Positions 6,714-62,536 of a stretch of DNA of 64,000 nucleotides are shown here, piece after piece. The notes under the pieces were generated by a model. It was not told the DNA's origin, made no database searches, and worked only from the letters and a program-made list of their open reading frames with translations. The stretch's first letter is position 1. Each line of letters begins with the position of its first letter. A program made the position numbers and the translations under genes. The DNA is from Moniliella sp. 'wahieum' (taxonomy: Eukaryota), in contig RSEE01000120.1 of assembly GCA_003971905.1 (NCBI GenBank), positions 62,001 to 126,000 on the forward strand, in the 5' to 3' direction.

Positions 6714-7398
6714 ATACGTCGCTCAATCAGCGGGCCAGCAGGAGGTGTGGGTGCTGAGGGGACTGGATCTGAGAGCTCGCAGACAGATGGGAGATGGCGC
6801 GTGAGCACACGAGCGGCGGGGCTGCGATGCTCAGACCGCTGTGGCATTCACTCGGACCGAGGTGTAACTCTGTGAATGGCAGGCCGGGGGGATGAGGCGG
6901 TGGGTTGAGTGGAAGATGGGTGTCGTGCTAGATCCAACGTCGAGCCACGCAGAGATAGGAGGTTACGCGGTACGGGAGCCAGCAAGCGACTGTGGCAAAC
7001 GGCGTATAGGGGGGGCCTAGTTCAAGGATACTGCACCAAAAAAGCCTCTGAGGCCCGAGGCACACACTGGCACAGACCAGCTCATCCACTGGTCAATGAT
7101 CGATATTGGTGGGTTTTGGTGGCCTGAGTACTCGGACTGAAGATGAGTGGCGCTCAGAGCGTCACAGTCACTAGCTAGCTATTCACTCCGGTCACATGAC
7201 CTGCCAAAATTGCAACACGCAAGATCAATCGGTCAAATTTCAAAGGCCAAATTGATACTCGATAGTCGCTAGTCGATAGGACGTGATAAATTGAAATGCA
7301 TATCGCTGGACAACAGGTGTCCACCACGCCTGCATGGCGGGCGGGCTTGTCCTCCGCTACTGGCCAACCTCGTCTGTCGCCGTCGTTGGTGCAGTGGC

Positions 7399-9150
7399 AT
7401 AGATTCATCCGTCGTGCGTCCTTGGCTGCGATCGATCATCGGCCTTATGCGCGGGAGACCACTTTTTACCCAAGTCGATGCCGTCTTGCAGCAGCAGCGC
7501 GGCCTGCGTGTCGCGACAGATGTGCGCACCCTCGACGATGTCGCTCTGCCCTATCATCAGCCTCTCCGGCACGCTGCCAGTCACCTTTCGTGGTTCGCAG
7601 TACAACATTCCTCCTCTGTTGTCTGGGTCCCACATTCTTACCGTGTGAGCCACCGTTTGGTCTATGCCGAACCCACGCGCGGCATAGCCGTGCGCCGGGA
7701 CATCTCTTGTACAGCTTGATGGTCGTGTTGGGTTCGGGCAGGTCAAAGACGGACCGGGCTCGTATCTTGCGCGGTGGGAACGCAAGTGGGAAGCCAGCAA
7801 CTTAATTGATCTAATGGCCGACTTACAAGAGTGCTTGGTGCTGACCTGCCTGCATATGCGGTACCGGCTATAAGGAACCCGTGGCCTCCATTGCCGTTTC
7901 GCCTGTACCAGCCCGGCCGCTCCTGTGTCCCTGCTCACACACAATCTTACTTGCCCCCTCAGGTTCAGGTTCTGGCTCGATTCCATCTCGCCCATCCCCA
8001 TCCTTCAGAAAACACTCATTACAAGCCCCCATCGTCGCCAGCTCCTCCAGCAGCGGGGCAAGCGCTCTGGCGCCTCCCATGCCGCCTCCCAAACCCCTGG
8101 GGCAACGACAGTCGCTGCTCATTTAACGGGGGGCAACCTGGAAACGGGTATGGTTCACAGCCCTCACTGGTGTTTACGCCATCCCTCTGCACTCACCCTC
8201 CCGCCAAGCGACGTGTGTATGCGCCGAGCTATGCCCGTCTGGCTCTCAGCTACCATCATCCCTCCCCGACGGGCAGGCACATCCTGCCGGGTGGGTGCAA
8301 CCCCCTCTCCACTCTAACAGCCTGCCCAATCCCCCTCGGGCACAGTACCTGCCAGGATTAATACAGGACGGTTCTCTAGCTCACCACGCTGTCGCCTCCG
8401 GCTCTCCCGCCAACACCGCTACCAGTCAAGGCGTTGCATCCCCCCATACACACTTTCTCTTCTCATGTTCCGATGCCTCCCACTGGGGTGGGGGTTCCCC
8501 CCCCCTTGTCTGAACCACATGATATTATGGACGAGGAGGAACAACCTGTGGTGCCCAAACAGGCACCTGTGCGGCCGCCTAACCCGGAGCTGCTGAGGTT
8601 GCACCATCAACTGCATGCTCGTGTGGCCGATCGGGTCGGCGCCATTTTCCGCTCATTGGACGAGGAAGCGCAGGGCATGAGCGATGATCTGAATTGTGGC
8701 CAGATGGCCATATCGGATGAATCGCATCGGCTTGAGGTGGTACGGGATGTGTGCCGGTCACATGCGGAGCGCTTGACCTCACACAACGAGTCTGCCGCTC
8801 AGACCTTGGAGACGGTTCAAGCGAGAATTGTGGAGCGACTTGAAGGCTCCGAGGCTGGTGACGACTGGATTATGGCCACCAGCATCCCGGGCCAGCAGTG
8901 CGTCTGCTCCTTCGCTTGTTGTGGCCCAGCCAGATACGAACTTTTCGCCCTCTTGCCCTCTTGCAGGTTGATTGATTTGGTGGCCGAGAGCAATGCGATT
9001 GAAGACACCATGCACCAGCTTTCACGGGCGTTCAATGCGGAGACGATCACCCTGGATCCCTTTCTTAAGAATATGCGCATGCTTGCCCGGAACCAGTTCC
9101 TCAAACGTGCATTGGCGATGCCGATTGCTAACCAAGTGCCATTGTCTTGA
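7399..9150 (+). CDS. VPS23: ESCRT-I subunit Vps23/Stp22/TSG101, frameshifted
   Basis: UEV domain pieces (DSSVVRPWLRSII; TLDD.RSAL..LSGTLPVTFRGSQYNIP; WVPHSY..EPP), Pro-rich linker, coiled coil and Vps23 core (LIDLVAESNAIEDTMHQLSRAF..ITLDPFLKNMRMLARNQFLKRAL). Intron 8898..8966. The start reads ATAGAT, probably an error for ATGGAT. Confidence 0.88.
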
Positions 9151-9394
9151 AAATGTGAGCGAGCGGGGCCAGTACAGTGTCTCTTGCCTATGATCTGTTT
9201 TATGGGAGCTCAGCGCACTGACTTTCTTCCCACTTACTATCTTCCACTTGGCATACCCAAAACCCAAGTAGGCCTTATAATGCGCCACGAAAGCACCTTC
9301 TCCTTACTGCAACAGTCTCAGGGAAGGAGGGTCTTACCCAACAAACAAGATGCCATCGGGGAAGGCTAATCAGATTGAGGAAAGGGCGCGCGGC

Positions 9395-10745: not shown

Positions 10746-12572
10746 TCTCGCTTCTTGAAGAGACTGGACGCAGAGGTTTGAAGCTTGAAGTTGGCAGGTG
10801 GTGGAGAAGAGATGTTCTTCCGCAAGACAGCTGCGTTAATCTTAACTTAACTACCCGTGGTCACGCGTCACGGCGCCACATGAATATCTCCGCCGGGAAT
10901 CAGCCGAAATGACGTATTGTAGCGTTGAAGGAAGTTCAGATGTTCAGACATTCGCGGTAGGAGCCTCAGGCACTGAGCCTGAATATATGGGCTGTGAGGC
11001 TCACCGGTCACCGGTCACCCTAGCTTACCAGTGAGGTCACCCGTCACCATCACTTGCGCCAAAATTCCATTCAATTCCGCTTTGCGGCTCAGCAACCATC
11101 GGGGAGAATAGCGCGATTGCATCATTCACTAACGACTTCACTACCTTCACTACTTTCATTAGTAGCTGCGTATATGGAGCCGACCATTCGAACCGTTTCC
11201 TCCTTCCTCCTCAGCATCAGCAAAAAGGACTTGCGGCAGAGGTGGCTACGTGGATGGACGTCTTGCAGGCCGGTGCGGTCTGAACGGCGTGCTGCACACA
11301 ACAATCCGATCATTGTAGCTCACTTTCATCTTCGCTTGGATCACTGGATCATCCAAACACATTTAGTAGGAAAGAGAAATGGAGGAGCTTCTTGTAGATT
11401 CCAGGGCAAGAGAAGGAAAATAAAAGGGATCTTGGCCACAGATTTGGGGCACCAACCAAAACCCGGAACCAACTAGGTGGTATCACCTTGAGACGTATCA
11501 GTTGTTTTGCTTGCGCGCCGCTTCGGAATGAATAGAGGACTTGTTAGCGCAATTGAACCATGCGATTGATCCAAAGTGGCCTTCCTGGTATATGTCCACC
11601 ACAATCTCATGTCCACCCTATTGCTGTCTGAGGAAGCAAGTGCTTCTGCCTCTCTCTTGTGGGAGGAACAAAGGCGCTTCGCAGTTGCCAGAGAATATTT
11701 GTCAACCGCTCAGGCAGTTCCGCCAGAGCCGTAGTACGGCCCTCGTACGCCTTCACACAACAAGACCACCCAAAGGAGCAGAAAGGATCCCAATGGCCTG
11801 TGCAATGGCCCAGCTCACAGTCAATATCCCGTTGCTATTGAAACAGAACTGAGGTCCAATTCTCTTGCAACTCTGCCTGCGGGATCAGGGAGATGGGTCG
11901 CGATCGATATCGTTTCCTGTCGCTTACAAAAGCCCCGGTCTCAAAGTGGCCTCTTAGATCTTAGGGCCCTCCGGTGATGATGCCAGTGACGTGTGCGGTG
12001 CAGACCCCGTCTCTGGAGCCGTGAGGCCAGCCGTCTTCCGCGGAGCGAAGATGGTACCGAGTTGAGCCGATCGACGTGCATACGCTTGGAGCGCGGGGCC
12101 AGGGCCAGGCGCGCGGTCGGGGCACGAGAGATGTGGCCAGAGACGACGAGAGGGGAGTAGAGGAGAGGTGCACTGCGTGGTGGAGGCGCGGTGAGGCCTG
12201 CGGTGAGGCCGGTGAGGGTGGACGATGGCCAGGAGGGCGTTTGCAATGTTTCTTGTCGCAGCGCGCCCAGAGGGGCAGCAGCGGGGCAGCCGACGAGCTC
12301 CTGCCGGCTGCCGCCCAGCAGCCGTCGCAGCGCGGCACGAGCACGGCAGAGGGGCAGTGTTCGCATGCCGGCATGCACGCAGCATCACGCATCATGCATC
12401 ATGCATCATGCGTCCGAGTGGGTTAGGTACGTTAGCCGCCCAGGCTGTGGTGGGGCGGCGCGCCCATCCAGCTCATCGCCATCGCCTTGCGCATCGCCTC
12501 CCGCATCGCGCCCCGTCGCCATCGCCATCGCCACCATCGCCACCATCCCCACCCATTGCCGGGGCCTCAGCC

Positions 12573-19777: not shown

Positions 19778-20326
19778 GATGGGCGGGGGCGGAGGGAGGC
19801 GGAGACCGAGTACGAAGAGGACGAGGGCAAGGAAGAGAAGAGGAGGAAGAGGAAGAGAGAAGAGGAAGGTGGTGGTGGGAAAGATGCTACGCTGTCCTAC
19901 TGTATTATACCAGATCGCCACGCCGTCGGCCGTCTGCAAGGGGACAGAGTGTGCCAGGGTGCCGCAGGGTGCAGTGATCATGCATCATGCATGGCGCACC
20001 ATGCGTCATCCACTGGCTGGCTGCGGAGGTGCGTGCGGCGTGGCAGTGCGAACGGAGCGCCGACGCAGCGCAGGAGAGCGCAGGAGAGCGCAAGCGAGCG
20101 CAGGGCGCAGCACACTGCGCAGCGGGTCACGATCGCCGAGCACAGGTGCCTGCACAGGTCAGAATGCAGAATGCCGGCCATACGCCATGGCGGCGCGGGG
20201 GCGCAGTGGCGTGCAGGGGCAGGAGAGCGCAGGAGAGCGCAGCCCCGCGCGGCGCCAGTGGAGCGACGAGACGTGTGGGCCGCGGGGCAACCAAATCCAT
20301 TCTGCCCATTCGACGAACGACGGTGC

Positions 20327-20360
20327 ATGCATCATGCATCATGCATCATGCATCATGCAT
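20327..20360. repeat. Heptamer-palindrome array (ATGCATC)x5
   Basis: atgcatcatgcatcatgcatcatgcatcatgcat, the longest perfect member of the intergenic heptamer family described in the findings. Confidence 0.9.
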
Positions 20361-23300
20361 CGCCGCGCAGTTCTGACTTGGCAAATTCACCGCGCATTCG
20401 CTTGATTAGCTTGATTAGGTCGTCAGTTCTTGTGCTTCCACGAGTCTACATCACCGATTGGCGTCGATAGCACGCGGCACTCTGCCTGCACGCCGCACCC
20501 TCTCGCCCAGCCTGCGACGGCGTGGCTCCCCCAGCGGGTGCTTCTAATCACCTCACCAGCCACGCCACAGGCCGCCAGGCCCCGCCTCCCGCCCACTGGT
20601 CCCACCCGCCCTCCCATCCCACATCCGCGCCATATGCGTCCCCCGCTTCCTGCCGCCTTGCCACCCGCCCCGCGCGGCACAGCGCCCGTGCTGCCGTCCG
20701 CTGCCGAATCCGGATTGCGCTCCGCCGCCTCAGCGTCACGCGTCCCGCGTCCCTCGTCACTCGCGTCACCGCGTCACCACCACTGAGCATGTGCATATCA
20801 ACCGCTGGGGCTGGGGGCAGCCGCTGTAAATACACGCCTGGCCCAGGTCATCGATCCGGTCCTCGGCATCGAGAATCCTCTGACATCGCACCTCTGACTG
20901 GGTCTGGCGAGTCGACCAAACGGCGAGTCCCTCCCCCATAAGACGTCGAGGACGGTCCGTTTCCACGGGGTCCGGTTGTGTCACGCCTCACGCGTGCCGC
21001 TCCTCGTCTGCATCATCAATCTTTTTAGCGCGGTGAGTCACCGGCACCACGCTGAGCAGCATGTAAAGCTTGTAAAGGTCAGCCAGTCATAAGTTTCTCA
21101 GCCTCTCAGTTGAGCGCATGTCATGCGTTCCTCGATCATTGATCGGCCAACGCCCATCGTTCGTCGGCGTCAATAACATGTAACATCAGCGTCTAGCTGC
21201 GGTCGTGGGCGAAGAGCACGAACGGTACATAGATATTAGATCCTCTTCAGGCTGTGGTGCGGAGCGACAATCGACGCCCGCATGAGGCCCGACGACACAA
21301 GCGCCGTTCTGCCAAGAACAAAGACTGCCAGTGTATCATGTAGCAACGCGCAGCACGTAGCACATACTAGCACACCGCGAGGGTAGCATGTGCCTGTAAC
21401 AGCAACACGATCACAAAAGGTGCCTATAATGGAGCAGAGCATACCAAAGAAACTAAGGGAAAAGAGAAATGGCGTCGTTCCCCACCGTGCTCTCGGAGCT
21501 TCGTGTTTGTCTGGCTAGTCTCAGGAAGGCGCTCCCCCTGAGCGGTCCGCGGCTCAGCGCCAGCCCTGCTGAGCCTCGGCCTCTCCGGGCCTCGACAAAC
21601 TGAACATGAGCCCGTAATGAAAGGCCGCGGTGTTACAATGCGATGCATGACATGATGCATGACATGGACCAGCCGCCGTCTGTTGTTTATCACATCTTAC
21701 TTCTTACATTCATTACAGCTTTACGCCATTGAATTTCCAGCTTAAGGCCGTGGGTCATACCAATTACTGCTCCCGCCCACCTTTGCGGTGCGCGACGCCA
21801 TAATAAGAGGATGGAATGGTGTGTGCGCTGACCCGCTGGTGGCGGCCGCGGCGTCGCCTGGCTAGCCGAGCCATAGGCCGATTCAAGCCGAGCGTTGAAC
21901 CTCAGCTTCAGCCTCAGCGGCTGAGTGCTGGCCTGCGCCGGCGTGTGACATGGGACGCGTGACGCGCTGACTGAGGTAGCACCACACGGGCACACCAGGG
22001 CGGGGCGAGATGTCAAACGCGTCCAACTGAACCCACGCCACGCCAGGTCCCGCTGTGTGAGATCTGAGTCACCTCTGAATTTGAGAGAGCCAACACATGT
22101 AACAGAAGGCTGGCCGCGGAGCTGGGCAGGCTGGGCAGTGGCTGGGCGGGCGAGACGGTTGGGCGCTGGATTGCGGGGCCAGGGAAAAGAGCGGGATGGA
22201 AATTCAATTTGGGTTGCCGGATCCCGCCTTAGTTACCGGTTACCCCGGTTACCGCTTATGCGGTAAGCACCGAGTACAAATGTCCCGCTACCACACCCAC
22301 ACCCCACCAAAGCCGAGCGGGGGTAAGGAGCAGGCAAAGGCAGCTTACATCCGTCGTATGCTGCGCAGCAGGAAGGAAAAGCAGCGCTCCCCTACACTTG
22401 CCCTCTGCTCGGGTGGGTTGCAGACGAGGCAGCCAACGGCATGAATCATGAATCTTGCGTGCACGTGGGAAAGGTGATGCAGACGTGGGACTATCGACTA
22501 TCGGTTGTCCCATGTCCTGGGCGCAGGGTAGGGCAAATGAAGCTCATCAGGCGTGGTAGGGGTCGGCCGGTGCATGGTGCGACAGCACGCTAGCTCCAAG
22601 GCAGGTACAGAGCACTCGGCACGAGCTGGGCCCTACCTGGCTTCCCTAGGCCCTACGGGATGTCCATGGACATGGTACACAACACTCGGCCACTGCCACC
22701 CAATGCGACACGGCCAGGAACGAGGCGGCACACTGGCCTTGCGCCCGATGTGATCCAAACCCCACTGCCTGTTGTCAGATCTCAATCGCACCAGGGACGA
22801 AGAAACTTGCCGTCCCTACCGCCCCCCTTGCTCCACCCAACAAAAAGAAGCCGGGTCGTCCGAGCACCACGCAGGAGAGCGCGGTACACATTACCGCCGC
22901 GGGCCAGGCACAGCCTCCCAGTCCCCGCCGCCCGCCCGAGGCTGAGCAGCTGGCAGAGCTTGCCGCTTCAAGCTTCAAGCTTCACACCCAACGCCCAACA
23001 TGCAACGCACGTACGAACGTCAACGTGTCAACATTCAACGTATTCATCCCTTCACACGTACACGTGGTTGCCCAGCGGCCAGGCAAACATTTTGTCCCCG
23101 TCAGGGCCTCAGCCCCCAGCGCCTCAGCCTTGAAAGCCTCAGGCACCTCGTGCATCATGCATGCAGCCTGAGCGCTGAGCCGTTGAGCCGGTCAGCGCGC
23201 TGGGCCTCCGATCTGGAACGGCCGCCTGTAGTGCGGAGCTTGTCTACTAATCAGGCCCACACAGGTCCAACCATCCAGCCACGCTTGTCCACAGCCAGTT

Positions 23301-26276
23301 CCTAGTTACTAGTATACCCTTTAGCTTCATTAGCTTCACTAGTAGTGACACAAATCCAATCCATTCCCCTCGCTCGCCCCTGGAGAGGAGGCAACCTGAC
23401 GCGCGCGCCTGGTGCAGCAAGACGCAGCCAAATACAGCACTCCATATCGACCTAATAGCCTTGGTGTATGTATGGTGATCGGGTGGCCGGCGACGCGGCG
23501 ACGGGGGCCGCTCACGGTGATCTGCAACACCCCACCTGTTCACTGTTCAATCGTTCACAGCGTGCTGAGTGCTCGCTGAACAAGCTCGCAACTGAGCGCT
23601 TGATCGCTGAACGTTCCATCGAATGCGTTGAGACGGTTGAGCTTCACACGAGTTGTCTATAGTGGGATCTGGGAGTCCATGCGATCTTCAAGCTCCAGTC
23701 TTAGTTACTCTAAGTATCCACATCAACGTTCGACAAGGCGATCAAAAACAAAGCAAAACGGAAGGGGTGGCGGTGAAGAAAAAGGGGGAACGTGCAACAT
23801 GGGAAGAAGATATGCGGCGGGCTCTGTACGCGCGCACGCGCACGCGCGAGTGGCTTGGCTCTAGCTATATATTATACCACATCTCGACAATCGATCAGTA
23901 TGTCACGCATCGCAAGCAGACTCCATGGCAACAGGAACTTCGAGCTTGAGAAGAATTGTGGGAACGTTGTCGTTACCAGGGGCCAAGAGCGAGGGGCAAG
24001 GGGCAAAACCGCGCGTGCGAAAACAGGAGCGCTTCAGCCGAAGAGCGCCCGAGAAACTAAGTCTGGATGTGGAAAGTGGAGCCGGTGGGTTACGCCGGTT
24101 ACGCGTTAAGCAATAAAGTTTCACTGTGGATGCGCGAAAGGCTAGTGGAGCTTCCAACTGGAGGCGAGCGCGGAGAGTCCGCGGGGGCGTCAGCGAGGGC
24201 GATGCTGACGCGCTGAAGCCTATTGCCTCCACTAGACATGGGGAGGAATTTCGAGCATGTAAAAGACCCACAGAAGAGTTTTGGAGTCGCGCGAGCAGGC
24301 TCCGCGAGAGGGCAGTACTAGTGACCGCGATAGTATTGCTACTAGATTGCCAATGGGCAAAAATGAAGTCCCAGATGGCGAATGACAGGGTGTGAATCGT
24401 TGCCCCTTAACGATTCCTTTGGACCTGGGCGCATTGTTGGGAGAGATGGAGATGCACACGGTATGCCTTGTTTAGATAACCGATCGGTAGGCCAGATGGC
24501 CAGATGCAGCTCACATCGGCTCAATTACATGTATCGTTGTCGAACAAATGAACGGAGTGCAAGGAAACACCTTTGTAAGTCGTTTTCACTTTCCACAGCA
24601 TCCCGACGAGGGCTGGCGGTGATGCTTTATACGACCACCATCCTTGAAACACATTGCACGGCTAACAACAGATCTGGGAGCCCCCCCCATAGAGCAGTCT
24701 CGCCTCGCTCGTGGATGAGTTGATGGGATTTTCACCGTACTCGATTGGTAAGGGCAACAACAGCCGACATGAACTGGACAGAGGGAGAGAGTATTAGTGC
24801 CCTCTCTCGCTTTCGCCTCTATTACCTTTCCCCAATCGCCTCGTACTAGGTAACAACACAGATATATTACTTGGATGCCCCACAGTACTAGCTGAACCTA
24901 CTATACCCCCTGGGAAACGCCGTATTCAATAGGCAATGTACTATAGTAGGTCCAACCATGCCGACCTCTACGTGTACGAGGTCCATAGGAGAGTATATGG
25001 AGAGAGTTACCGCCATGATAAACGACCCGGGGCCTAATATCCTCCAACCCATATGTGGCACCCGCTCGCCACAAACTTCGCATCTGCCTGGACTTACGAC
25101 CGTGAGGCATCTCGGAAACTATACTATCGATACGCACCCCGCACTCGACTATCTCCACTATTGCTCCCAACTTTGTGCGTACGAATCGACACTCCTCCGG
25201 GCAAACATTGGCAATCTGGAATATCATCTCGCTATGCAAGACGAGTGTCTACTAGGCCAGCTTTTTGCTTCTCCCTACAACAAGACCTACCGTTCTGACA
25301 ACCACACTCGCCTGACGGAGAGAGGAAGTAGCGAGCTTGACCGATGTAGGGGACCTATAAACGCATAATAGGCAGTGTCACCTGGTGCGTTTCTACTCTA
25401 GTTTACCTAGGTTTCTCTTCCAGATGTACCTGACCCACTTCCTCAGGATCTATACATGGCTTCGCACATATAAACAACTCCAACGCAGCCAGCCCTTTCG
25501 CAGGGACCCGGCTCTCCGCCCCACGCCACAGGGCGACTTGCCCTCCCACCGTCCTCATCCACCCAGCTCAGGCAACCTCCCCCCCCACCCTATAGAAGAA
25601 GCGCACGGTTCACAATCGTGTCTCTTCCATATCTGTATAGCTGTTGGCCCGTCGAGATCCCCCTTTCTAACCCTAGAAGTGAGGGCCAGTGAGGTAGCCC
25701 TAGTTGTATATATATAGGGGAGACCACGCCAAAGCAGCACTCTCGCCAAACTATATAATAAACGGAGAATGTGTTACGACAGTGACTGGCTTCACCCCCG
25801 CTGGGAGCACTTCCGCTTCCGTATAATGTCAAAAGCACGACAAACATGAACTGCTCGTTACCCCCTTCGAGACCCTTATTGCTACAATCCCGGGAGATTA
25901 TGCAGTTTGCAGATAAATTCGCTCAGCGGCGACGCCATGTGTCTCCTACATCTGTTCCGTTCTGCAAGTGAACCGAATAAGGTGAGAAAACCTTCGTCCG
26001 TGGGGTTATCGGGCTACTCGTCCCGTCCATTGTAACGCAACAGATGCCTTTCCGCTTTTTGGCGAACACGGATATTGCTTTCTCTCTGCGTATACTGGCA
26101 ACCTGGCAACGTTCTCCTTCTAAGTCTGACTGGACGTTACGACTTCGTAACATAAGAGCTGAGCAGCAAGTGGATCAGAATGGGGGTTCGATCACCATGT
26201 TGTACAACAGAAACCAAAGGAGGGACTTTGCCCACGGAAGGTCGGCGCAAGCAAAGTCCCTTCAGTGAGCATTGAT

Positions 26277-29768: not shown

Positions 29769-31075
<1,307 letters not shown>

Positions 31076-34375: not shown

Positions 34376-34422
34376 AGCGGAATAGTATTCACCACTACGC
34401 CTCGGGCGGAATTTTATCACCC

Positions 34423-36495: not shown

Positions 36496-38920
36496 TTGAA
36501 GCTTGAAGCTCGACGCTTGAAGCTCGAAGCTCGAAGAGCTTGAAGCTGCTCCAACGCTGGAAGGCTTGGCGACATAGAACGTGGAACGCTGAGTGGCGTC
36601 ACACGCGTCACACGCTCTGCTACAGACCAACCGTGAGTCGTACTGTGGGTAGAGCTCCAGTGCCCAGTGCGTGCCTGTACGTGCCCATGGCAGTGCTCAG
36701 TGGCTCAGTGGCTCAGTGGCTCAGTACTTCAGTACTCTTCATGTACTCATTCAGCATTGAGAAGATGGAGAGTATAGGCACATGTCCGCATGCATCTGCC
36801 CCCTAACAAGAACAATCGGACGAAGTATTCCTGTGTACTAAAACCTCTCACCCGCTCCATCCTCTATATTCACTTGCAACCCAGAGTGGAGACGCAGAGC
36901 GGCGCTGGAATAGTTGGGAAGAGGGTGTTCCGACGATCCTGAGACTGAGATCTGAGAGGTGGGCTTGAAACTCTTGAGGCTCGATACTTGCTTCGACCCA
37001 CGGGCGCGCGGGCTCTCACACGCATCCGGCAACGGGCACTCTGAGGCTCAGGCCTGAGGCAGCTGTGGCCCTGTGGCCCTGTGGCCCTGTGGCCCTGTGG
37101 CCCTGTGGCCCTGTGGCCCTGTGGCCCTGTGGCCCTGTGGCCCTGTGGCCCTGGGCCCTGTGGCCCTGTGAGACAGTGAGGCCAGAGGGCCGCCTGGACC
37201 TGACCCGCTCCAGCCTGAACAACAAACTCGCGCCTTCGAGACTTCATCAATCATCGATCATCGATCATCTCCTGCAGGGGATCTCAGATCGACTCAGACC
37301 TCAGACGGGGGGTCCGGCTATAGGAAGAAACCGGGACATGGGAAGAAGATGGAGTAGGTGAAAACGGAGGCATGTCCCTCTCTCCACCGAGTATTTCAGG
37401 GCCAGGAACCAACATCGTGAACCGCGTGAACTGTGTGGGCGCCATGTATCCTGGGCCATCACTGCCCCAGACCTGAGCCTGAGCAGCCGGAAGGGGGGAG
37501 GCCGGGGAGGGTCCTCAGTGAGGCCTCAGGGACTGACCTCAAGTGTTGCGACCTGCGGGAGGGGGCGGCAGGGACGCAGGACGGCTGGGGACGTCGTGGA
37601 TCGTGCAGGAGGGTTGCTGTTGCAATGTAAAATTCCGAGTCACAGCGCGTGCCCTGTGCCATGCGACGCGTGACGTGACGCGTGAAGCGCAAAGATACCG
37701 ACGGTGATACAATGCGATGCATGTGAAGATGGCGTGCCGATGGTGTGGGGGCAGTGCCAGCACTATTGCAATAGTCATGCTCATGCATCATGCTCCCAGC
37801 ACGTGAGGAGTGACGCGTGGCATCACGCATCATGTAACACGCAACGCGGTTACCGGTTACCGGTGACCGGTGGCGCGTTCCGCATTTACGCGTTACGCGT
37901 TACGGGCCATGTCGTGGCTGACGAAGCGCAGAACGCAGTACGCCTCCGTACTCAGTTGGGTCCGTTGAACGTGTTGAACGTTGAGTACATTGAGTTTAGT
38001 AGTACTCGAGTACTCCCTAGTCCTCAGGCCTCACTTGATAAATGTCGAATTACTAGGTACTGAAGTACTGAGTTACTAGTTACTAGTTGGTGAAGCTTCA
38101 AGTACTGAGTGTACTGAGTTACTCGGAGTACTCTACTGAGGTTCTGAAGTCCCTAAAACAATCACCAGCGTTGTCACGTGTCACAATCACGAGTGCCCAG
38201 GAGTCACGCTGTGTTAGTGCCAGGGAGTGTTGTGACATGTGACATGTGAATGTGATGCATACGAGGCTGAGGCTGAGCCTGCCGGTGTTAGGAGCGCGAG
38301 GGCTGAATACGCTGTGCCCAGGCTCGGGGCTCAGGCGCTCAGGCTCAGCGCAGTGCGAGTGGCAGAACGAGGTGCGTGAGTTAAACCTTACGCGTTAACT
38401 AACACCCTGTAGCGTCGATCGCCGTAGCGGCGAGCAGTGGCGGAGCCCGCCCACTAGCACTGCCCATTCTCGCGTAGTTGGACGGGCTATCATGCATCGG
38501 TGAAGCGTGAGGACCATCGATCATCGACCGTTCATTGCCAGGACATGGCGTGGATGGATACGATCGTGGATGGATCGATGGCATATGGACCCCGTTCCAC
38601 CCCGATCCATCTGCGCAGGGCGAGCGGCTGAGCGCAAGGGAACAATGAAATGAGCTGTCCATTGATCGTCGGTGGTGCATAGTGATGCTGAAGCTGGAAG
38701 AGTGCAATTCAATGTGGGCACATGGAAGATTGACACGTAGGCGGCTGGGCAAGGGTGTGTGGGCTGGGATGGCGACTGCTCGGAAGTGAGTTCGCAACAA
38801 CAAAGGGCTTCTGTCTTCCCTAGGGCATCAGTGCATCAGCCATGAAATATTAGCCATCGCTGAGGCTCATCGGCTCAGCGCTCCGCTCATCCGAAGCAGC
38901 GGCTAGTGACTGTCACTAGG
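36496..38920. repeat. Dense cluster of heptamer-palindrome islands (AAGCTT, AGGCCT, ATCGAT, ACGCGT, ATGCAT, ACCGGT, AACGTT, AGTACT, ACTAGT, ACATGT cores)
   Basis: Examples: 37251 tcatcgatcatcgatcat; 37847 cggttaccggttaccggtgaccggt; 37886 ttacgcgttacgcgtta; 38073 ttactagttactagtt; 38091 tgaagcttca; 38231 tgtgacatgtgacatgtga. Confidence 0.85.
37063..37170. repeat. 8-bp microsatellite (CTGTGGCC)n, about 13 units
   Basis: Read directly; one unit lacks a T. Confidence 0.95.
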
Positions 38921-46359: not shown

Positions 46360-47019
46360 CCTGCCCCCCAGCCCTCATCTGACCCGGTTCAGTGATGCCC
46401 TGCCGACCAGCCCGCATCGCTCCCAGACCTTGGCTCAACGCTTGGGTCACACTGCTCCTTTGCCCGACGCACGAGCTGCGTTTACGCCCCTGGGCGCCAA
46501 CTCGTAGCTGTGCCTCGATCTTTGCCTCCTCTCCCCGCTCGCTTTCCCCCCCTTTTGTGCATCCATGTATTTTATGGCTCTAGCCCTTTCTGTGCAGGCA
46601 TCTGTATGGTTTCTGACCCTCCCCCCCCCCGCTTTGCGCCAGATGGCGAGGAGAGCTGTGTTTGTAGGCAGACGTGACGGCGTAAGGACCGTGTGTTCAT
46701 CAATAGCTTGGATGGCGTAGCAGCCTGATCGAGAGGCGACTGAGAAGGCGGCGCCAGAAGCTGCCCACGCTAATAGACTGGCTAGCAGACGTGGTGCGCA
46801 AGGTAGGCCAGGATGGCCGTAGGCCACATCAGTCTGTGGTTGCAACTGATGCACCGATCGATATATTGACCACGTGTTCATGTTATTCCGGCCGCAGTCT
46901 GATCACCTCGATCGATGATCGATGATCGATTGCTGATCGCCGTTGCGGCTTTCTTGCTGTGCCACCGCCACCATCGTCCACGTCCCTCCCATTGACCAGC
47001 CAGTGACCTCCTCGTCACA

Positions 47020-48305
47020 ATGTCCGAAAAGACCCCCTCACTCTCTCTGCCAGCTCCTCTCTCCCGCTGCCTGCTTTCAACGCGCTCTCTGGTTCGTTGC
47101 CTGCTCTTTGCCTGCGCTGTGCCCGCTCTGTGCCTGCTCTGTGCCCACCCTTACTTGACCTCACGCTCACTCCCCTCCCCCCCTTGTCGTAGGCAAGCGC
47201 GTTGTTTTGGCCAGCGGCAGTCCGCGGAGACGCGAACTGTTGGCAGCGGTGGTACGCACATCCTTTCTTCTGTGTTTGGCTTGGAAAGGGAGAGAAACGG
47301 GAAAGCTGACTTGGAATGGCAGGGCCTGGTTCCCGAGGTGGTCAAGTCGACCTACGAGGAAGATTTGCCCAAGTCGGATTATGTTGACGAGAAGATTTAC
47401 GAGTATCCAGTTGAGACGGCTCGGGAAAAGGTGCGTGATTTTGCATTGTGGTTCCATGATCTTTGCTTGTGTTCCATTCTCCGCTATTCTCCGCTGGAAG
47501 GTATTTCTGAGGCACGGCGAAAGCCGCAGACGATCCTGACCCCATATCTTCCTTTTTCACAGGGAATCGAGGTGTACAGGCGCCTAGTGGTGAGTCCCCC
47601 CCCCCCCCCCCCCCCCCTGCCCTTTGCCATGCAACCACAGCAGCTTGGGACGCAGGCTAATCGCTAATCATCTGCCTGCTATCGTCATACCATGAAGGAG
47701 GAGGACCCGGAAAATGCACCGGACGTGGTCATTGCTGGTACGTTTGGTTTCGGCGGACTATGCTCATGCACATGCCACATCATACTAATCAACCCCCCCC
47801 CCTTTTTTTTGCCCCATGTCCAGCCGACACGATCGTCATCAAGGATAATGAGATCCTGGAAAAGCCGTTGGACCGGAACGATGCGTTACGGATGCTGATG
47901 GACTTGAACGATGGGTCGTGCGAAGTGGTGACGGGCATTGCTGTTGTCCATCCCATCCTCGTCAGTCCTGGCTATGATCAAGTACGTTTGGAGCTACAGT
48001 GTTCGGGGGGCCCATGGGCTTGCTTACGTCGTTACTGAGTCTCTGGGTACTGACCACTTGCTGTACTTAGGAGCATGGCCGAAAAGACCAAGGTTAACTT
48101 TGCGTGGAATCCCCCGGAGCACCTGTTGGCCTATGCCAACTCAGGGGAAGGAATGGACAAGGCAGGTGCCTTCTCCATCCAAGGTCCGGGCGCGCTGTTT
48201 ATTTCCTCCATCGAGGGCGACTACAGCAACGTGGTGGGTTTCCCTGTTCATGCTTTCTTCCGCTTCCTTCACGACTTGTTGGAGAACGACGAGATTGAGT
48301 TCTAG
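47020..48305 (+). CDS. Maf/YhdE-family nucleoside triphosphate pyrophosphatase, 7 exons
   Basis: KRVVLASGSPRRRELL; VVKSTYEEDL; ADTIVIKDNEILEKP; YANSGEGMDKAGAFSIQGPGALFISSIEGDYSNVVGFP. Introns 47092..47192, 47252..47322, 47431..47562, 47590..47697, 47738..47823, 47981..48070. Confidence 0.92.
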
Positions 48306-51131: not shown

Positions 51132-53131
51132 GGTGGCGCCAGGGAGAAACAGACGGCGGCTGTGAGTGGTTCGAGAGGAGGTGTTTAATCAGGTCGCACT
51201 GCTGGAACCATCCATGTACGGCCAATGCAGGAGACAGATGGGTTTGGTGATGGAAATCGGTGCAAAAGCAAACACGTGAGCCTGACAAGACATGGGTTGT
51301 TGCACCGAACTCTTGCATTCCGCTTGTCTATCTCAGATCGTACGTGCCACAATCTCATGATGCATGATGCATGATGCCCATGATGTATGGTCATCGATCA
51401 TCGATGATGGCCTCACGCTTTTAAACTTCGTCTTTCCGTTACACGTTGACGCGTTAACGTCTGCTCAACGTGTTTTGAGGCAGAAGACAAAAGCTGCTCA
51501 CGTTCAACAAGCTTCAACAGCTTCAACGCACGTTCACATGTTCCCACGTTCTGAACAAACGTCCATCCGCTGTGTGGCGCTCGTGTGAAGAGCCCTGCAA
51601 ATGAGCTGGTGTGGCTCCCGCCTGTTCTGGACATTGGCGCATAGCATTTGCAAAAGCTTTGCGACAGGGGAGAGGGCAATTATTGTGATGATCAAGAGAT
51701 TAGGAGGCCGAGTGCTAAGGGTGCGGTGGAGCGGAAAGCGGAAACGACGTGGTTGTTGGGATTGTTTGGGGAGCAGTCTGCGGTGACATGTTTTCTGCTC
51801 GGAAGGAGCATTAGACCTCTCAGATCTCTCAGGGCAACAGGAGGATCTGGAAAAGGAGCCGGACGGGGATATGGATCAGGTGATCGATCACCCTCCCAGG
51901 CCTGAGGCCCAGGCGAGAAAAGCGGGTACAAGGTACGTGTCTCAGGATTTGTTGGGTACAGGGACTGGAGCCGATCGACCGAGAATAGTGCTGCCGACGC
52001 ATTGATGGCGCCGATGTGGATTCGGGTGGATCCTGCGGGCATACGAGAAGTTCTTTTTGTACCCCGACCGGCTGGCATGCACCAGGCGACTTATTTTATG
52101 AGAGGAAAGTGCGGGGGAAGAGCCGGGGAGATAGGAGAACGTGCTAGCTAGGGTCGTGGCTACTGTGGGACGCAAAAGCTATACGTATTCGCGGAGACAA
52201 ACAAGAGCCACAATGTCATGTCCGCCCTTCCCCTTTTACTGGACAACGAGAAAAAAGGCAAGCGTCGGCAAGGGGTGCCGATGGCGATTAATGGAGAGAG
52301 TGGGGGCATCGTATGCTCCTCCTACAACGGAAGGAGGGGCAGGTAGCACTGGTGGTGAGAGCAGTGGAGCTGGCGGCGCCAAGGGTGGGAGGTGGACAGC
52401 GGCGGGTGGAATTGGAGAGGGGGCTGCACTGCCCTGCCCACTCTGCCACGTTGAAGCTTGTGCGGCGTGACATGTGACATGTGAAGCGGCAGAGAGAAGC
52501 GGGGGTGGAGGGCTGGCCCGTGCGCGTGCAGGGAGCGAAGCCTAAATGGCCAGGGCGCGATAGGGCAGGCCCCGTGCAGCGCGGGAGGCGCGCGGGGCCC
52601 AGGGTGTGCTGGTCGCCTCACCAATCCGTGTGGCAGCGATAAAAAATCAAACGAGGCAGTCGCCAGGCACGCAACCGCAGTCCGCTGCGCCCGCCCGGCG
52701 CCACTGTCGGCCCTTGCAGCTTGCGGTGATGGCACTAATCATTAGTCCAGCATTAATCAGTCGGCAGGCGCATGGCTGCCCCCTGCGCTGCCCGTCGCAG
52801 CCGCCAGCACGGGCCTGGGCGTGCGGCCCGGACTCTGGCCACAGCCCCCATGCCGCTCGGTGCACGCTCGAGCCCATGCGAGGCGCCAGTGTGCCCATGG
52901 GAATCCGCGTCCGCACGGAGCCTGTGGAACGCATGCCGCCGTGCGCTCCCGTTCCACCCGGCACCCGGGCAGTGTCTGCTCTCCGCATACCTGATTCTGC
53001 AGCGCAGCGGTTATCTGCAAGACTCCGTTATTTAATCTTCCGCCTGGCCCCTAGCCCCACACCTTTTCCTCCAACTGCTCATCAGCCGCCGCCCTCTCCC
53101 CTCCCTCCTCTCTTGGACCATCGTCGCTGCC

Positions 53132-54315: not shown

Positions 54316-54999
54316 GGTGGCCTCCGGGTACTGTGTTAGCTGATGTTGTCAGCTGGCATACCTCCCTTCGGCTTATGCAGGTTGCTTGTGGCTGTTGTTC
54401 TTGACAGTTCCCGGCGCTTCAGGCTGCGTTTCTTCTTTCACCCCCACGCCCTCGATGGCGTGTAAATTGATACTCTCTCAAATCTGAGATCTGATGGATA
54501 TCAGATTCGTTGGGCTCTTGATAGAACCATTGACGCTAGACAGCATGCATCAATGCCAGTGTTTTCATTCGCCACCACTAGTAAGCGCGCTAGTAAGCGC
54601 GTCGGCGCTGCGCTGCTGCTGCGCCACTACCTCGTCGGCATTATCTCTCACTTTCCCCAAAACAACTTACACGTCACCGCCCCCAACCAATTAGTGTCGG
54701 CTACCAAACCTGGTGTCAGGCATGTGTCATGCATGTCATTCACATCATCGTGATCGTCGAGGATTCATCGATCATCGATCATCGACCATCGTAGACTTCT
54801 TGTGCGGGTGGGCTACAGGAGGCTACAGGCCGGTTGCCTGAATCAGACAGGTGCAGCTGGTGGGGCTGCTGGAAGAGGCATTCCCACCAGGCGATCGCGG
54901 TTCGATCATGTATTGTTGTCTTTCCTTCCTGTCTCTGCCCATGTTGCTCGGGCCGGAACAGGCTTACAGCTTGGGGCCAGTCATCCAGTGGACGTCGGC

Positions 55000-56217: not shown

Positions 56218-56518
56218 CTCGTCTCCAGTTGCCGACAAGGACGGTGGTGTTGTGGTCTCTTGGGAAGTGTAGAATGCGAGGGAACCTTATCCCTCTGAGG
56301 ACAGAAGGCCGACGTCAGCGCGTAAAAGTTTCAATTATGTCCGAATCTCAGTATCTTCACAGGCACAAGCCAAACAAGCTGGGGCCAAGTCCTGGCCAGT
56401 TCCAGACAAAGAAAGCCGTGTATCGATGGGACGGTTCTCAGATCTCAGATCTCACTCACATGACTCATGGCTTACTCTCTACAAAAAACGTGCACCTCAC
56501 GGAAAGGAGGCGTTGTGT

Positions 56519-58283: not shown

Positions 58284-59641
58284 GGCGGCCTTTTGGTGGA
58301 GCAGATGACAATGACGCTTACTGAGCAGCGGCGCGGGAAGTATGACTGATGCCTATGCCGTAGTGGTTGTTGTGCTTGTCCCTGCAACACGCAAGAACAG
58401 GGGGGCTGGCAGGGGTGCCTTTAAAGAAACACCCATACACCCCCCTGTCGCGGTAGCACAAGTGCACGGTGTCGCGTTTCCACACTGCCGGCGTTCATCT
58501 CACGTCTCACGTGCTTGCGGTCTCAACTATACCCAGATCTCTTAACCCTCCGCTCTCGACTCTTCGCGCAATCGCGCTGGCTTCAAGCTCAGTGCAGTCG
58601 TAAGCTTTCAAATAAGCTTCGAGAGCAGCTTCAAGGGGAAATATTCCGTGGTCCCAGTGACTAGCTAATGGTCTGATCCAGCTTGAAAGGAAGCGCTCGA
58701 CCAGCATGGTGTGTGGAGGCGCTACGCCTGGTTGCAACGGTCTCGTGTCTGGTGCAACACACCACCATCTGGAATGGCCTCATGATGCATGATGCACGAT
58801 GCATGGTCTCATCGCCCCACGTCGTCGATGATCACCATTATCGATGATCGATGATCTTGGATCTTACGAATCTTACGACACTGTCTCTCTGCTACGCGGT
58901 CCCCTGTATTCTCAGAGGGCACATGCACATGGCGGTGCGCCTGGGTGTGCTTGCTTTCATTTGGCCGCTATCGTTGGCACATGTACAAGTGCTGCAACAT
59001 GTAACGTGGAGGTGTAGGTACAGCGGATATAGGTCAAATTTCAAAGCCGAACGGGACAGCAATTGAGGACTGTGTGGTGCACCAAGCGGGTAATAAAGAG
59101 CACCCTTTGGGTTGCCAAATTTCAAAACTCAATTCCGACTCCTGAAGCTGAAGGTTGACTTCAACTTGAAGCTAGAAGCTCTGAAGCTTGAAGCATGATG
59201 CGTGACATGCATGACAGCCGGTTCATCGATGATTTGCTTTGCTGTCCCTGTCACATGTCACATTCACATGCGACTTGTCACATACACGTCACCGTCACCC
59301 ACCGGCCACCTCTCCAAGCTCCCTATCTGGGTTCGCGTTCAAGGTACACCCTACTCAGTACTCAACCTCAACATCCAACCGTTTAACTTGGAACTGAACA
59401 ATACAGTCATCGGTCGTCTTCGGCTGGCACGTGGCATCAGCCGATTTTTAAGAAAGCCACCATCCACACGCGCCAGCTTCACGCCCAAAGCAAGCTTCTG
59501 CGCCCCACACTCCATCCATTGGTTCGTCTCGTCTCCTACACTCACCCCCCTCCTTCTTGTGCGTCCGCGCTTCGTCGTACTTGGACTACCGCTCTCGTCT
59601 CCTGCTCGCCCAAACATAGCGGAAAACGCTGACCAGTCGTC

Positions 59642-59700
59642 CTATCAGATCCACAACAGGACCAAGTGAGCCCAAGCGATCTCATCCATCTCATCAGATC
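59642..59700 (-). promoter_or_regulatory. Two near-consensus iron-responsive GATA (SreA/Urbs1-type ATCWGATAA) sites in the sid1/acyltransferase divergent promoter
   Basis: Minus-strand ATCTGATAG (59642..59650) and ATCTGATGA (59691..59699), each one mismatch from ATCWGATAA. A further GATAA lies at 58838..58842. Confidence 0.35.
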
Positions 59701-59998
59701 TCTCCAGATCACCTCTTGTTGGCCACCTACTCTCCGCCAGGCCCTCAACCCTCGGACCTTGCCTGAAATCCGTGTAGCAGACCCGTCTTGGCGTCCTTCC
59801 TACAACTGCCTCAACCCTCTCCAATAACCTCTGTCCCGCCGATCCCAGCTTCACCGGCTCCGCATTAGCTCAGTCAGGACGGCCCAACACAACCAACATC
59901 ATCAATTCATCCATCATCATTGGTCATACCTGCCACCAACGCTGCACTGAGCTTCTCACGTCCCTGCTCAATCCACCAGTCACTAGTCAGCGCTCAGC

Positions 59999-61431
59999 AT
60001 GAACGTCTTTCACCCAAACTCGGGATTGTTCTCTCTCGCCTCCTCCACCGACCCAGCAGGACGGCATGGTCCGGATGATCGTGTTGATTGGACCCTGAGC
60101 AAGCCTTTGATCTTGCCTGCGCCCTATACCGTATCCAAGTTAAGCATCCAAGCCACGTTCGTTAATAGCAAGTCGCTTACCGGCCCTAATGATTCAATTG
60201 CGCGTCTTACCTTCAAGGCGGATGCACCTGGCGAACTCGACCCTTGTTTCGATGAGCCAATCGAGTTTCATGCTCCACCGCCCCATCCTTCCTTCTACGA
60301 TACCATGCAAGAGCTTTCGCTGAACACACCGCGCAACCGGGCCGAGTCGTTGTGGGGGTCCATCGCGGTTACCTCTGTTGATGACAATGCGCACCAAAAG
60401 AACGATGCCAGTTTTCTTTTGCACGCTGAGGAGTACAAATTGTGGGCAATGCTGCTCCTCTACTTTGAAACCTTCCCAGGTGCCGAAGGAGTGAAGGTAA
60501 TCCGCTCTTTGGGAACGAAGAGTCCGAATACCGAGGTGCGATGGTCATTTGGCCTCAGTCTCCCTGCCTATTGGTGTGACAAGAATCTCTCTGCAGTCGT
60601 GGCGATTACTCGCGACGAGTTTTGGGTTTCCTCTCCGCCAACTTGCCCGCACCTTTCCCCCTGGGTTCCCCTCCCTCGGCCTCTGAGCACACTGGCACCG
60701 CCGAAGCCACCTCCAGGTACATTGGTGTACCAGCGTTACCTTCCCGCCCTGTCTAAGATCCTCCGCTACCGCCTGATTGATGATGGTCCGGCCCCGGGTC
60801 CTCCAGGTGGGCTGGACAAGGGCATCCTCCCTTTTGATGGGGAAAGCGCCGATGCGAGCGGTTCGTTTGGTGGCGACGTACCGCTGTTTGGCAAGTGGCA
60901 GAACTCAGACCGGGTCAACTCTGGCTGGCGGCAGCGTGGTCCGCTTCGCGAACATTGGGACTTTGTCCATGAATGTGTCGACGACGAGCATCGGTGGGGC
61001 TTGATCGGGACATGGGAGAACGTCGGGACCGGGTCCGGAACCGAGGCTGAAAGCGTGGGTGGTGAAGAGTCATGGGGGTACGTTGAGCTCTATTGGCCCG
61101 CCTTTTCCAATATTGCCCGATGGGCTCAGCCCTCCGATCTAGGCCTCCATGCTTTGGTGGGCAACGAGAAGTTCCGTGGACCAGGATTCGTGCGAAGCTG
61201 GATGGGAGCGGCGGTCCATCTCGCCTTCTTGTTGTCGCCTGGGGCGCAGCGCTGTCTCTCCGAACCCCGAGCAACACAAAGATGGTAGGCTACGAATGTC
61301 TCGTGGGCGGCCAGGTGGAGCGTCTGATTGACTTGGGCCACAAACGCTCGGCGCTTGTGGTCTGGCAGCGCGACGGGTTTTTCCAGCTGTGCCCCATGGG
61401 GCCCCTGGCTCAGCACGTGATGGGTAGCTGA
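59999..61431 (+). CDS. N5-hydroxyornithine acyl/acetyltransferase (SidF/SidL/IucB-type GNAT), frameshift near 61275
   Basis: PPKPPPGTLVYQRYLPALSK; FGKWQNSDRVNSGW; WGYVELYW; DLGLHALVGNEKFRGPGFVRSWMGAAVHLAFL; CLSEPR..NTKMV; LIDLGHKRSALV..RDGFFQLCP. This is the AlcB/Acetyltransf_8 siderophore acylase pattern. Confidence 0.88.
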
Positions 61432-62536
61432 TTGTGCTTGATTGAAAGACTAGCAAGTGAACGGCAGCATCTCTCTTGAAACTGAAGGCAGGGGGCGTTG
61501 AATAGAGAGATGGAAGTGAGTTGGCAAGTTGGTGGATGTGCGGTGGTATGCAGGGTCCATAGTAATGCTGCTGCACGCTCATCGAACTCATCGGCACAAG
61601 GTCGTGCGAAACACACGCTCGGATGTACTCTCTCTTCGCGTAGCCACGCGTGTGAGGGCATGACATCATGATGAACCGTGAACGCGTGAACATTCAACTT
61701 AGCGCCACCGGCTTAATGTTGGCTGGGCAAAACGGTACACACATGGCTGCTATGGCTTGGCCACGTGTGAACCACTTCTTTTGCGAACACCAACTGTTGC
61801 GCCCCGGTGTCCTAACGCAAAGGCGACCGGAGCGAAGATCCTGAGTTGCCAATCCCACTGTGCTGAACACTTCGCACCACGTGCTACACGCTCTTGGCGC
61901 GCGCTCAACCTGTCCTCTCTCCCCTGCCTCCTCCTGCTGCCACGGAGAGCGCCGGCGACATGGCATCGCTATCATGGCGACAAAGAGATGTCACGTCACA
62001 TGCGAGGTAGCAAAGACTCGACGCCTCGGCTCCTCTCCCTCGGTTCAATGTCATCGCTCGTATCCCCGACGCTCGTCTGCTCGCCATGTATACATGGGTG
62101 TGGGGCACTCGCAGAGACACACGAGGTGCTTGGGTATCGGGAACGAGGCGATTTAGCACTCAGTGTCCTCGGTCCCGGTCATCAAAGCTTCTTCACGTCA
62201 TCCTCCTCCCAGTACATCTCGTCGACGAGGTAAAGGGCAGTGCCGTGGTTGCTAACGGCATGCTTCAGCAGCTTGTGGACAATGCTTTCGGCTAAGCATG
62301 TTTCCAACCGGCATACCATGCGGCGGCCGCATCTGCTCTCCCAACACCTATACACCTAGTGGGCAGACAACGCCGGCAGTACCGACAGCGGCGTGCACGC
62401 CCCCTCCTTCACCTATTATTAGGACGAATGATTGCTACTTAAACCCCCCATCTGGTCGGACCCTCATTTTCCCCTCACCACCCCACTTCCCCCCCTCTGC
62501 TCTCTCTCCTACCCGCCCACGCTGTGCATTCATATC

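Follow-up and report, generated by a model that had tools for sequence, protein, structure and literature searches.

Palindromic A....T heptamer arrays following one rule over thirteen cores in 64 kb of eukaryotic nuclear DNA

The window considered here, i.e., the whole stretch of 64,000 nt of eukaryotic nuclear DNA (58% G+C) that was analysed, carries short arrays in which a 6-bp palindrome beginning with A and ending with T is followed by one spacer base and repeated at a period of 7 bp. The cores of the palindromes differ from array to array, while period and symmetry stay the same, and this raises the question of how unrelated repeat units come to obey a common rule. We read the arrays as self-complementary heptanucleotide microsatellites—by-products of replication or repair and not arrays for protein binding—and discuss below the observations that support this reading, those that oppose it, and the alternatives.

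One period and one symmetry class

An A-type run is defined as a period-7 run of the unit A-w-x-x'-w'-T (a 6-bp palindrome) plus one spacer base, with a minimum length of 11 nt unless stated otherwise. The window contains 33 perfect period-7 runs with a length of 15 nt or more, and the arrays are also listed by Tandem Repeats Finder. The unit consists of a 6-bp palindrome plus one base in 21 of the 33 runs, and the palindrome is of the A....T form in all of these except one (20/21), the sole other unit being TCATGA+A at 22440. Overall, 59 A-type runs were observed, compared with a mean of 3.4 and a maximum of 7 in 50 block-wise dinucleotide shuffles, which bears out the family of A....T-palindrome-plus-one arrays described in a first-pass annotation of this DNA; for runs of at least 13 nt, the figures are 35 and 0.24. 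The corresponding classes with the outer bases C..G, G..C and T..A remain at chance level (10, 5 and 8 runs versus 7.3, 8.0 and 4.0 in the shuffles). The comparison with shuffles and with other symmetry classes that the annotation had proposed thus singles out, within the window, A....T as the only enriched class and seven as the only enriched period.

The strictness of the rule is evident from pairs of neighbouring palindromes. Identical A..T hexamer palindromes lie one base apart in 22 pairs (0.0 in 30 dinucleotide shuffles); at this spacing, no pair with C, G or T as the outer base is present in the window, and spacers of 0, 2, 3 or 4 bases yield only 0–2 identical pairs. Neither period 5 (4-bp palindrome plus one base) nor period 9 (8-bp palindrome plus one base) has an effect. 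The triplets TCA and TGA (collectively TSA), which form most junctions between units, are enriched in repeat units of period 7 (19 versus 6.2 expected) and not in those of period 5, 6, 8 or 9; hence, a general TSA richness of all short repeats is ruled out. Odd palindromes with 5-base arms centred on T-N-A are found 43 times (12.5 expected), with no enrichment of those centred on ANT, CNG or GNC. Perfect T-n-A....T-n'-A palindromes occur roughly twice as often as their counterparts in the other classes (10 versus 7, 4 and 2). A looser rule, a 4-bp palindrome plus any triplet, was discarded; five of the 12 non-palindromic period-7 arrays hold such a palindrome, which is about chance.

Thirteen of the 16 possible A..T cores are present, all following the one rule. 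The earlier description had listed only GC-containing cores; this stands for the GC-containing cores themselves and for AATATT, ATATAT and ATTAAT, none of which forms a run in the window, but not for the pure-AT core AAATTT, which is present as three runs of 11–12 nt (7233, 59034, 59116). In 49 of the 59 runs, C or G serves as the spacer. A pyrimidine occupies the second position (w) in 17 of the 20 runs that reach 15 nt, giving a core 5'-Y-x-x'-R-3'.

Most of the individual examples cited previously are period-7 arrays, with extents as given in Table 1 (ATGCAT at 20326, ATCGAT at 46910, ACCGGT at 11001 and 37847, AAGCTT at 22965, ACATGT at 52467, ACGCGT at 37886, ACTAGT at 38071 and AGATCT at 56436). 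AGCGCT at 23168–23180 and AGTACT at 59352–59364 are weak examples, each being 13 nt long and, thus, shorter than two units. Two others are not of this type: the cited AGGCCT at 37519–37528 is a lone palindrome within TGAGGCCTCA, and the cited AACGTT at 27127–27155 comprises two perfect 10-bp palindromes TGAACGTTCA, 19 nt apart, with a period-6 stretch of AACTTG repeats in between.

The internal make-up of the arrays indicates how they grow. Of 74 10-mers that fit T-n1-[A....T]-n2-A, 58 carry identical spacers on both sides of the palindrome, 10 complementary ones and six otherwise different ones; for palindromes with other outer bases, the ratio is approximately 1:1:2. The spacer is constant in seven of the eight arrays having at least two spacers, and alternation is seen within no array. 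Because fold-back copying would alternate complementary spacers, their predominant identity argues for direct 7-bp duplication. Run lengths are bimodal, with 10–13 nt and 15–23 nt as the two modes plus a single run of 36 nt, and the A type accounts for 3.9% of 10-nt runs, its share growing to 17 of the 21 runs that measure 16 nt or more. A-type runs that reach 15 nt (20 in total) span 15–36 nt, corresponding to two or more units plus 1–8 nt of a partial copy; only one A-type run is exactly 14 nt long. Run boundaries occur in every phase, as eroded arrays would give, and degenerate units in the 7-bp phase flank the arrays. These in-phase flanks agree with the decay at array edges noted before; however, the variants of 6–8 bp reported there are not all to be trusted, because the assembly is rich in frameshifts (see below). 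Palindromy of whole arrays was considered and rejected, since deviations in the flanks mirror each other only at 12394 and not in general.

The pattern is specific to this genome, as judged against 425 kb of control contigs. Metagenome contigs were scanned for three ATCGAT palindromes at 7-bp period, which returned 123 stretches in 122 loci; the 33 loci that reach 5 kb served as controls, their own ATCGAT arrays being excluded. In runs of at least 12 nt, the controls contain 22 of the A type versus 53, 29 and 10 of the C, G and T types, while the window contains 47 versus 4, 2 and 3. The multi-core grammar was found in none of the loci from the ATCGAT scan. Several of these loci (L015, L036, L038, L045, L058 and L066) belong to one organism from one metagenome assembly (68% G+C, contigs of 190–540 kb), in which ATCGAT arrays occur in many places (1–5 per 20 kb) and the other cores are absent.

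Genomic setting of the arrays

The arrays avoid coding DNA. Pfam-supported coding sequence, amounting to 12.4 kb of the window, contains a single one of the 59 runs, compared with 11.5 expected (P = 4.5e-5), so that the absence of arrays from coding regions remarked upon earlier is upheld; similarly, 46% of the window reaches a given codon-usage threshold, and nine of the 59 runs lie there. Since the codon-score gene map is noisy due to frameshifts, the orientation of flanking genes was assigned for ten intergenic regions only, three divergent and seven convergent or tandem. The divergent regions hold 18 runs in 5.6 kb (3.2 per kb) and the convergent and tandem ones together four in 7.0 kb (0.57 per kb), a difference with P = 4e-4. 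When array positions are read against the genes, the strand carrying TCA or TGA takes no consistent orientation towards them. A function as stop codons—TNA is a stop on one strand for every n, and a period of seven covers the three frames—was rejected, given this mixed strand orientation and a palindromic core that it leaves unaccounted for.

Beyond the two clusters of Table 1, a third group of nine of the 59 runs is located at 58.8–60.0 kb. It falls within the 1.7-kb gap separating a divergent, siderophore-type gene pair (56522–61288), in which a minus-strand gene resembling L-ornithine N5-monooxygenase is paired with a plus-strand Acetyltransf_8 GNAT gene that starts at 59999. There, the nine runs fill the central 900 bp and none adjoins the start codons. 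Each of the two largest clusters, in turn, is contained in one of two stretches of about 6 kb without codon-usage signal (20000–26600 and 34200–40000), which are unusually long for a compact fungal genome. Rfam and tRNA scans of both stretches returned no match, and Pfam just one weak match, to DUF2160 and under the curated cut-off; the ORF concerned lies within a tandem repeat of 114-bp units.

Table 1. Period-7 arrays and array clusters in the window (position 1 is the first base of the window).
Position	Feature	Length and remarks
11001..11019	(ACCGGT+C) array	19 nt; perfect period-7 run
12389..12411	(ATGCAT+C) array	23 nt; flank units ACGCAT and ATGCGT mirror each other
19977..24108	Second cluster	14 of 59 A-type runs in 4.1 kb; no coding signal
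19977..19992	(ATGCAT+C) array	16 nt
20326..20361	(ATGCAT+C) array	36 nt; five palindromes; longest in the window
22965..22984	(AAGCTT+C) array	20 nt
36496..38883	Densest cluster	18 of 59 A-type runs in 2.4 kb
36496..36547	(AAGCTT+G) array	Degenerate GAGCTTC units; left edge of the densest cluster
37250..37269	(ATCGAT+C) array	20 nt
37847..37872	(ACCGGT+T/G) array	Three palindromes; only array with unlike spacers; ACGCGT array next, at 37886
37886..37904	(ACGCGT+T) array	19 nt
38071..38088	(ACTAGT+T) array	18 nt
38231..38249	(ACATGT+G) array	19 nt
46910..46930	(ATCGAT+G) array	21 nt; three palindromes
51356..51405	(ATGCAT+G) and (ATCGAT+C) arrays	22 nt; 15-nt second array begins 14 nt after the first ends
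52467..52484	(ACATGT+G) array	18 nt
54765..54785	(ATCGAT+C) array	21 nt
56436..56454	(AGATCT+C) array	19 nt
58781..58856	(ATGCAT+G) and (ATCGAT+G) arrays	16 nt and 17 nt; between the ornithine-monooxygenase-like and acetyltransferase genes
59182..59263	Four TGA at exact 7-bp spacing, then (ACATGT+C) array	Cores between the TGA vary (AGCT, AGCA, TGCG); ACATGT array at 59249–59263

Repeats of other kinds are found in the same parts of the window. A tandem repeat at 34235–35062 has a unit of 114 bp in about three copies (98% matches) with nested periods of 69 bp and 183 bp; a 74-bp repeat at 34235–34375 precedes the 114-bp repeat, which overlaps long minus-strand ORFs without a Pfam family. In the middle of the densest heptamer cluster, 13.6 copies of CTGTGGCC (37063–37170) form a period-8 repeat, which is non-palindromic and devoid of TNA. 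A loose inverted TCA/TGA arrangement that is not of period 7 extends over 23536–23640, where GTTCA words to the left are opposed by TGAAC, TGAGC and TGATC to the right. Outside the clusters, a 12-bp unit, GGAGCTGAGCCT, is present in about nine copies (18247–18351; 79% matches), which may be coding, its period being a multiple of three.

According to Pfam, the ORFs of the window encode fungal housekeeping and siderophore domains, comprising those of the 2-oxoacid dehydrogenase E2, arginine methyltransferase, Vps23, adenosylhomocysteinase, DASH Ask1 and glutamine synthetase as well as L-ornithine N5-monooxygenase, GNAT acetyltransferase and aspartyl protease. Two ORFs were queried for relatives. 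For the monooxygenase-like ORF, the best named matches are from Malassezia, Kalmanozyma and Tilletia (45–49% identity), and for glutamine synthetase from Ceraceosorus and Malassezia (79–80% identity); other protein relatives reach 79% and 92% identity. On the basis of these matches, the host is taken to be a fungus that probably belongs to, or is close to, the Ustilaginomycotina and lacks a close named relative among them.

The accuracy of the assembly was judged from the adenosylhomocysteinase gene, which runs without intron on the minus strand from about 31074 to 29800 and is split across at least three reading frames. The pieces at 30696–31007, 30361–30741 and 29813–30406 match the contiguous residues 27–118, 124–227 and 225–388 of PDB chain 1b3r_A, and additional single-base losses were seen by eye on the DNA in the first 25 codons and near 29900, giving at least six frameshifts in about 1.3 kb. 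This density is typical of a draft polished with long reads alone and suggests a low-accuracy long-read assembly. Other genes split over overlapping frames are the ornithine monooxygenase-like gene (56522–58352) and a DUF726 gene (14942–16215), and the true length of a run of 22 C at 47596–47617 is doubtful given the deletion errors of the assembly.

Possible origins of the arrays

As to the origin of the arrays, we tentatively prefer the view, with a confidence somewhat short of even, that self-complementary heptamers in open promoter DNA multiply by structure-assisted slippage or by microhomology-mediated tandem duplication. New copies would be added 7 bp at a time by either of these processes, for instance through an Okazaki flap that pairs again with a shift of one unit. 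A looped-out unit, being self-complementary, could fold back into a 5-bp stem with a T-n-A triloop or into a mini-hairpin closed by a 5'-pyrimidine...purine-3' pair, and, once folded, the slipped intermediate might evade loop repair and the removal of flaps. These structures would be favoured where the DNA between divergent promoters is open and negatively supercoiled, while contraction together with point mutation would erode arrays into the many runs of 11–13 nt.

Several features of the window are consistent with this scenario. Under the twin-domain model, negative supercoiling builds up between divergently transcribed genes; such supercoiling favours unwinding and folds, with which the excess of runs in divergent regions fits. 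The coding depletion fits as well, because a 7-bp indel shifts the reading frame and selection removes such events. Other short tandem repeats of period 6–9 are 2–4 times denser in the window than in the control loci, which was counted for slippage. In fungi, microhomology-mediated tandem duplication has been described as the main source of tandem duplications, depleted from coding sequence and limited by the flap endonuclease Rad27 (PMC13167724; bioRxiv 10.64898/2026.02.28.708716). The DNA tetraloops and minidumbbells known so far are reported to be closed by 5'-C...G-3' or 5'-T...A-3' and have been linked to a 3'-strand slippage model (PMC9975016); owing to this reported pyrimidine...purine closure, the 5'-Y-x-x'-R-3' cores of the long arrays (17/20) constitute a positive lead.

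A number of points, on the other hand, weigh against slippage and tandem duplication. Runs of 11–13 nt are already enriched (38 of the A type versus a joint 21 of the C, G and T types), an excess not expected if slippage started from chance seeds, and the short runs depart from the chance seeds on which microhomology-mediated duplication would draw. The strand-polar asymmetry between A..T (59 runs) and T..A (eight runs) is unaccounted for, and the expansion of the A....T class alone, with its T-n-A and mostly TCA/TGA junction, remains unexplained by any of the tests. Hairpin stability is rejected as the cause of the rule, since it favours the wrong classes: the mean energy of three-unit hairpins is −2.9 kcal/mol for A..T, the least stable, compared with −3.1 for T..A, −5.4 for G..C and −5.8 for C..G. 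When eight real arrays were compared with their own dinucleotide shuffles, seven showed no gain in folding (z between −1.2 and +0.8; energies of −1.6 to −8.1 kcal/mol), the exception being that at 37847–37872 (z = −3.65). Both calculations used a nearest-neighbour model that excludes two-residue loops. The clustering in promoters equally fits a regulatory role, and the gene orientations behind it were assigned by the author from Pfam hits and the codon-score track, with three divergent regions making a small sample. Finally, slippage is here a process inferred from static sequence.

The first-pass annotation had considered, as one of two models, that the arrays are scars of a recurring nick, fold-back or template-switch process at TNA sites. 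The idea of mutational scars retains support from the eroded in-phase flanks, the coding depletion and the general appearance of tandem duplication. Its fold-back version does not, as growth by direct 7-bp duplication is indicated by spacers (58/10/6) that never alternate, and the nick at TNA is a hypothetical step.

Alternatively, the arrays could be cis-regulatory or structural promoter elements under selection for which slippage merely supplies the variation, either as homotypic clusters of palindromic binding sites or as elements that unwind or form cruciforms and are recognised by a structure-specific protein; we regard this as unlikely. The gathering of runs in the central part of divergent intergenic regions speaks for it, as do the dyad symmetry of the unit, which is what dimeric factors or cruciform-binding proteins read, and the four TGA at 59182–59205 that hold the 7-bp phase while the core changes. 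Several cores are, we presume, similar to known fungal sites, e.g., ACGCGT to the MluI cell-cycle box. However, no single sequence-specific factor would read 13 cores under one rule, predicted hairpins and cruciform arms are weak, and three promoters in tandem orientation hold just one run in 2.7 kb. The other model proposed earlier, an abundant dimeric factor recognising T(C/G)A half-sites at fixed spacing regardless of the core, is not supported: such a reader needs no palindromic core, yet 20 of the 21 TNA-bearing perfect arrays are palindromic (about 1 in 16 expected), and it is further contradicted by the confinement of TSA enrichment to period 7 and by the inconsistent orientation of the TCA and TGA strands towards genes.

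A more far-reaching possibility, which we hold to be doubtful, is that the lineage has a dedicated, strand-polar process writing the arrays one self-complementary 7-bp unit at a time, be it an enzyme that targets T-N-A inside short palindromes or a reaction of supercoiled DNA at promoters that depends on structure. The arrays would then represent a promoter-specific layer of genome organisation, e.g., unwinding or cruciform elements between divergent genes, and the A....T rule would be the fingerprint of the machinery and not of ordinary slippage.

Scars of a sequence-directed enzyme acting at T-N-A, which we deem quite improbable, could arise in two ways. In the first, cycles of transposon insertion and excision with a TNA target-site duplication would leave two bases of each inverted terminus (TnA-wx|x'w'-TnA) and add 7 bp per cycle; in the second, a nuclease would cut the two strands 7 nt apart around a central TNA, and the ends would then be filled in. 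Elements of the PIF/Harbinger type duplicate TNA at their target, and promoters are preferred sites of DNA transposons. The predicted product, T-n-A plus a 4-bp palindrome plus T-n-A with the same n, is realised in 58 of the 74 10-mers, and the selective enrichment of TNA-centred odd palindromes over those centred on ANT, CNG or GNC (43 versus 12.5 expected for TNA) speaks for it too. One weak pair of 11-nt inverted termini flanked by TGA adds to this; the 435-bp stretch in question (37045–37479; one mismatch between the termini, TGA on both sides) is the only candidate for a TNA-duplicating element, but it sits in low-complexity DNA. Moreover, 13 cores would demand a multitude of element families or termini, a Pfam scan of 267 ORFs from the window (100 codons or longer) detected no transposase domain, and the predicted phase, starting with T and ending with A, is unfavoured, as only three of 26 10-nt runs adopt it and longer runs occur in all phases. 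An inverted-repeat scan of the window mostly returned arrays paired with one another.

That long-read base-calling, polishing or assembly created the arrays, which would then be absent from the DNA of the organism, is very improbable despite the error-rich assembly with its adenosylhomocysteinase gene broken over at least three frames, because a base-caller is blind to coding sequence, yet only one of 59 runs is coding (11.5 expected; P = 4.5e-5), strand-specific signal errors would not give reverse-complement symmetry over 13 cores, the arrays are perfect across 13–36 nt whereas the errors seen look like scattered single-base deletions, and the runs bunch in particular intergenic regions, between divergent genes; hence, the arrays are with high probability real.

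Relation to known repeat systems

Literature searches retrieved no description of a rule-based A....T heptamer family, the heptamer words matching no paper, in agreement with the earlier suggestion that the family is undescribed; nor is there an account of such arrays in the available parts of PMC3152781 and of PMC7218506, the latter dealing with mitochondrial palindromes. The composition of microsatellites is usually attributed to base composition and slippage, and 13 unrelated cores sharing one period and one symmetry provide a natural experiment on repeat expansion. If the rule reflects DNA mechanics, e.g., mini-hairpins closed by a pyrimidine...purine pair or supercoiling between divergent promoters, it would amount to a testable sequence code for tandem-duplication hotspots; if it reflects an enzyme, this would be an undescribed mutational or organising activity in a fungal group that includes plant smuts and skin yeasts. 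The array loci would, in addition, serve as highly informative strain-typing markers.

Excision footprints of DNA transposons share with the arrays a short palindrome flanked by TnA, and every cycle would lengthen the site by a constant amount. In the canonical footprint of Tc1/mariner elements, and with the TNA duplication of PIF/Harbinger elements, the duplicated target flanks a short palindrome derived from the two element ends. Here, in contrast, 13 cores are present, the window contains neither element nor transposase, and the predicted phase is unfavoured. Unstable tandem repeats in yeast promoters, whose change in copy number can reportedly tune expression (Vinces and co-workers, 2009), are also concentrated in promoters; they differ in being AT-rich, of many unit lengths and compositions, and without a symmetry rule.

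Bacterial intergenic heptanucleotide repeats, such as the cyanobacterial STRR sequences and GGGAATC of Xanthomonas, have the period of seven, the intergenic location and, probably, a fast-changing copy number in common with the arrays; reportedly, however, they are prokaryotic and built from a non-palindromic unit, with symmetry resulting from two opposed arrays (PMC4692102), while in the present case a fungus carries units that are palindromes in themselves. Membership of an STRR-like class is, thus, ruled out by the fungal host, the palindromic unit, and deviations in the flanks that are not mirrored in general. The expandable repeats CCTG, TTTA and ATTCT form a compact, pyrimidine...purine-closed fold that is thought to let them escape proofreading and mismatch repair, to which the 5'-Y-x-x'-R-3' cores of the long arrays may correspond; they are pyrimidine-rich, 4–5 nt in length and confined to single disease-related or bacterial loci, unlike the 7-nt self-complementary units with interchangeable cores described here (PMC9975016).

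A close parallel may be drawn with the microhomology-mediated tandem duplications of fission and budding yeast. These are head-to-tail copies of short units with a partial extra copy that can expand to multiple copies, are depleted in coding sequence, and have a proposed link to flap processing in lagging-strand synthesis (PMC13167724; bioRxiv 10.64898/2026.02.28.708716). In the text searched of these two sources, no unit rule is described, the strings “palindrom” and “hairpin” occurring zero times. In the arrays of the present window, by contrast, one period, seven, and one symmetry class, A....T plus one base, dominate.

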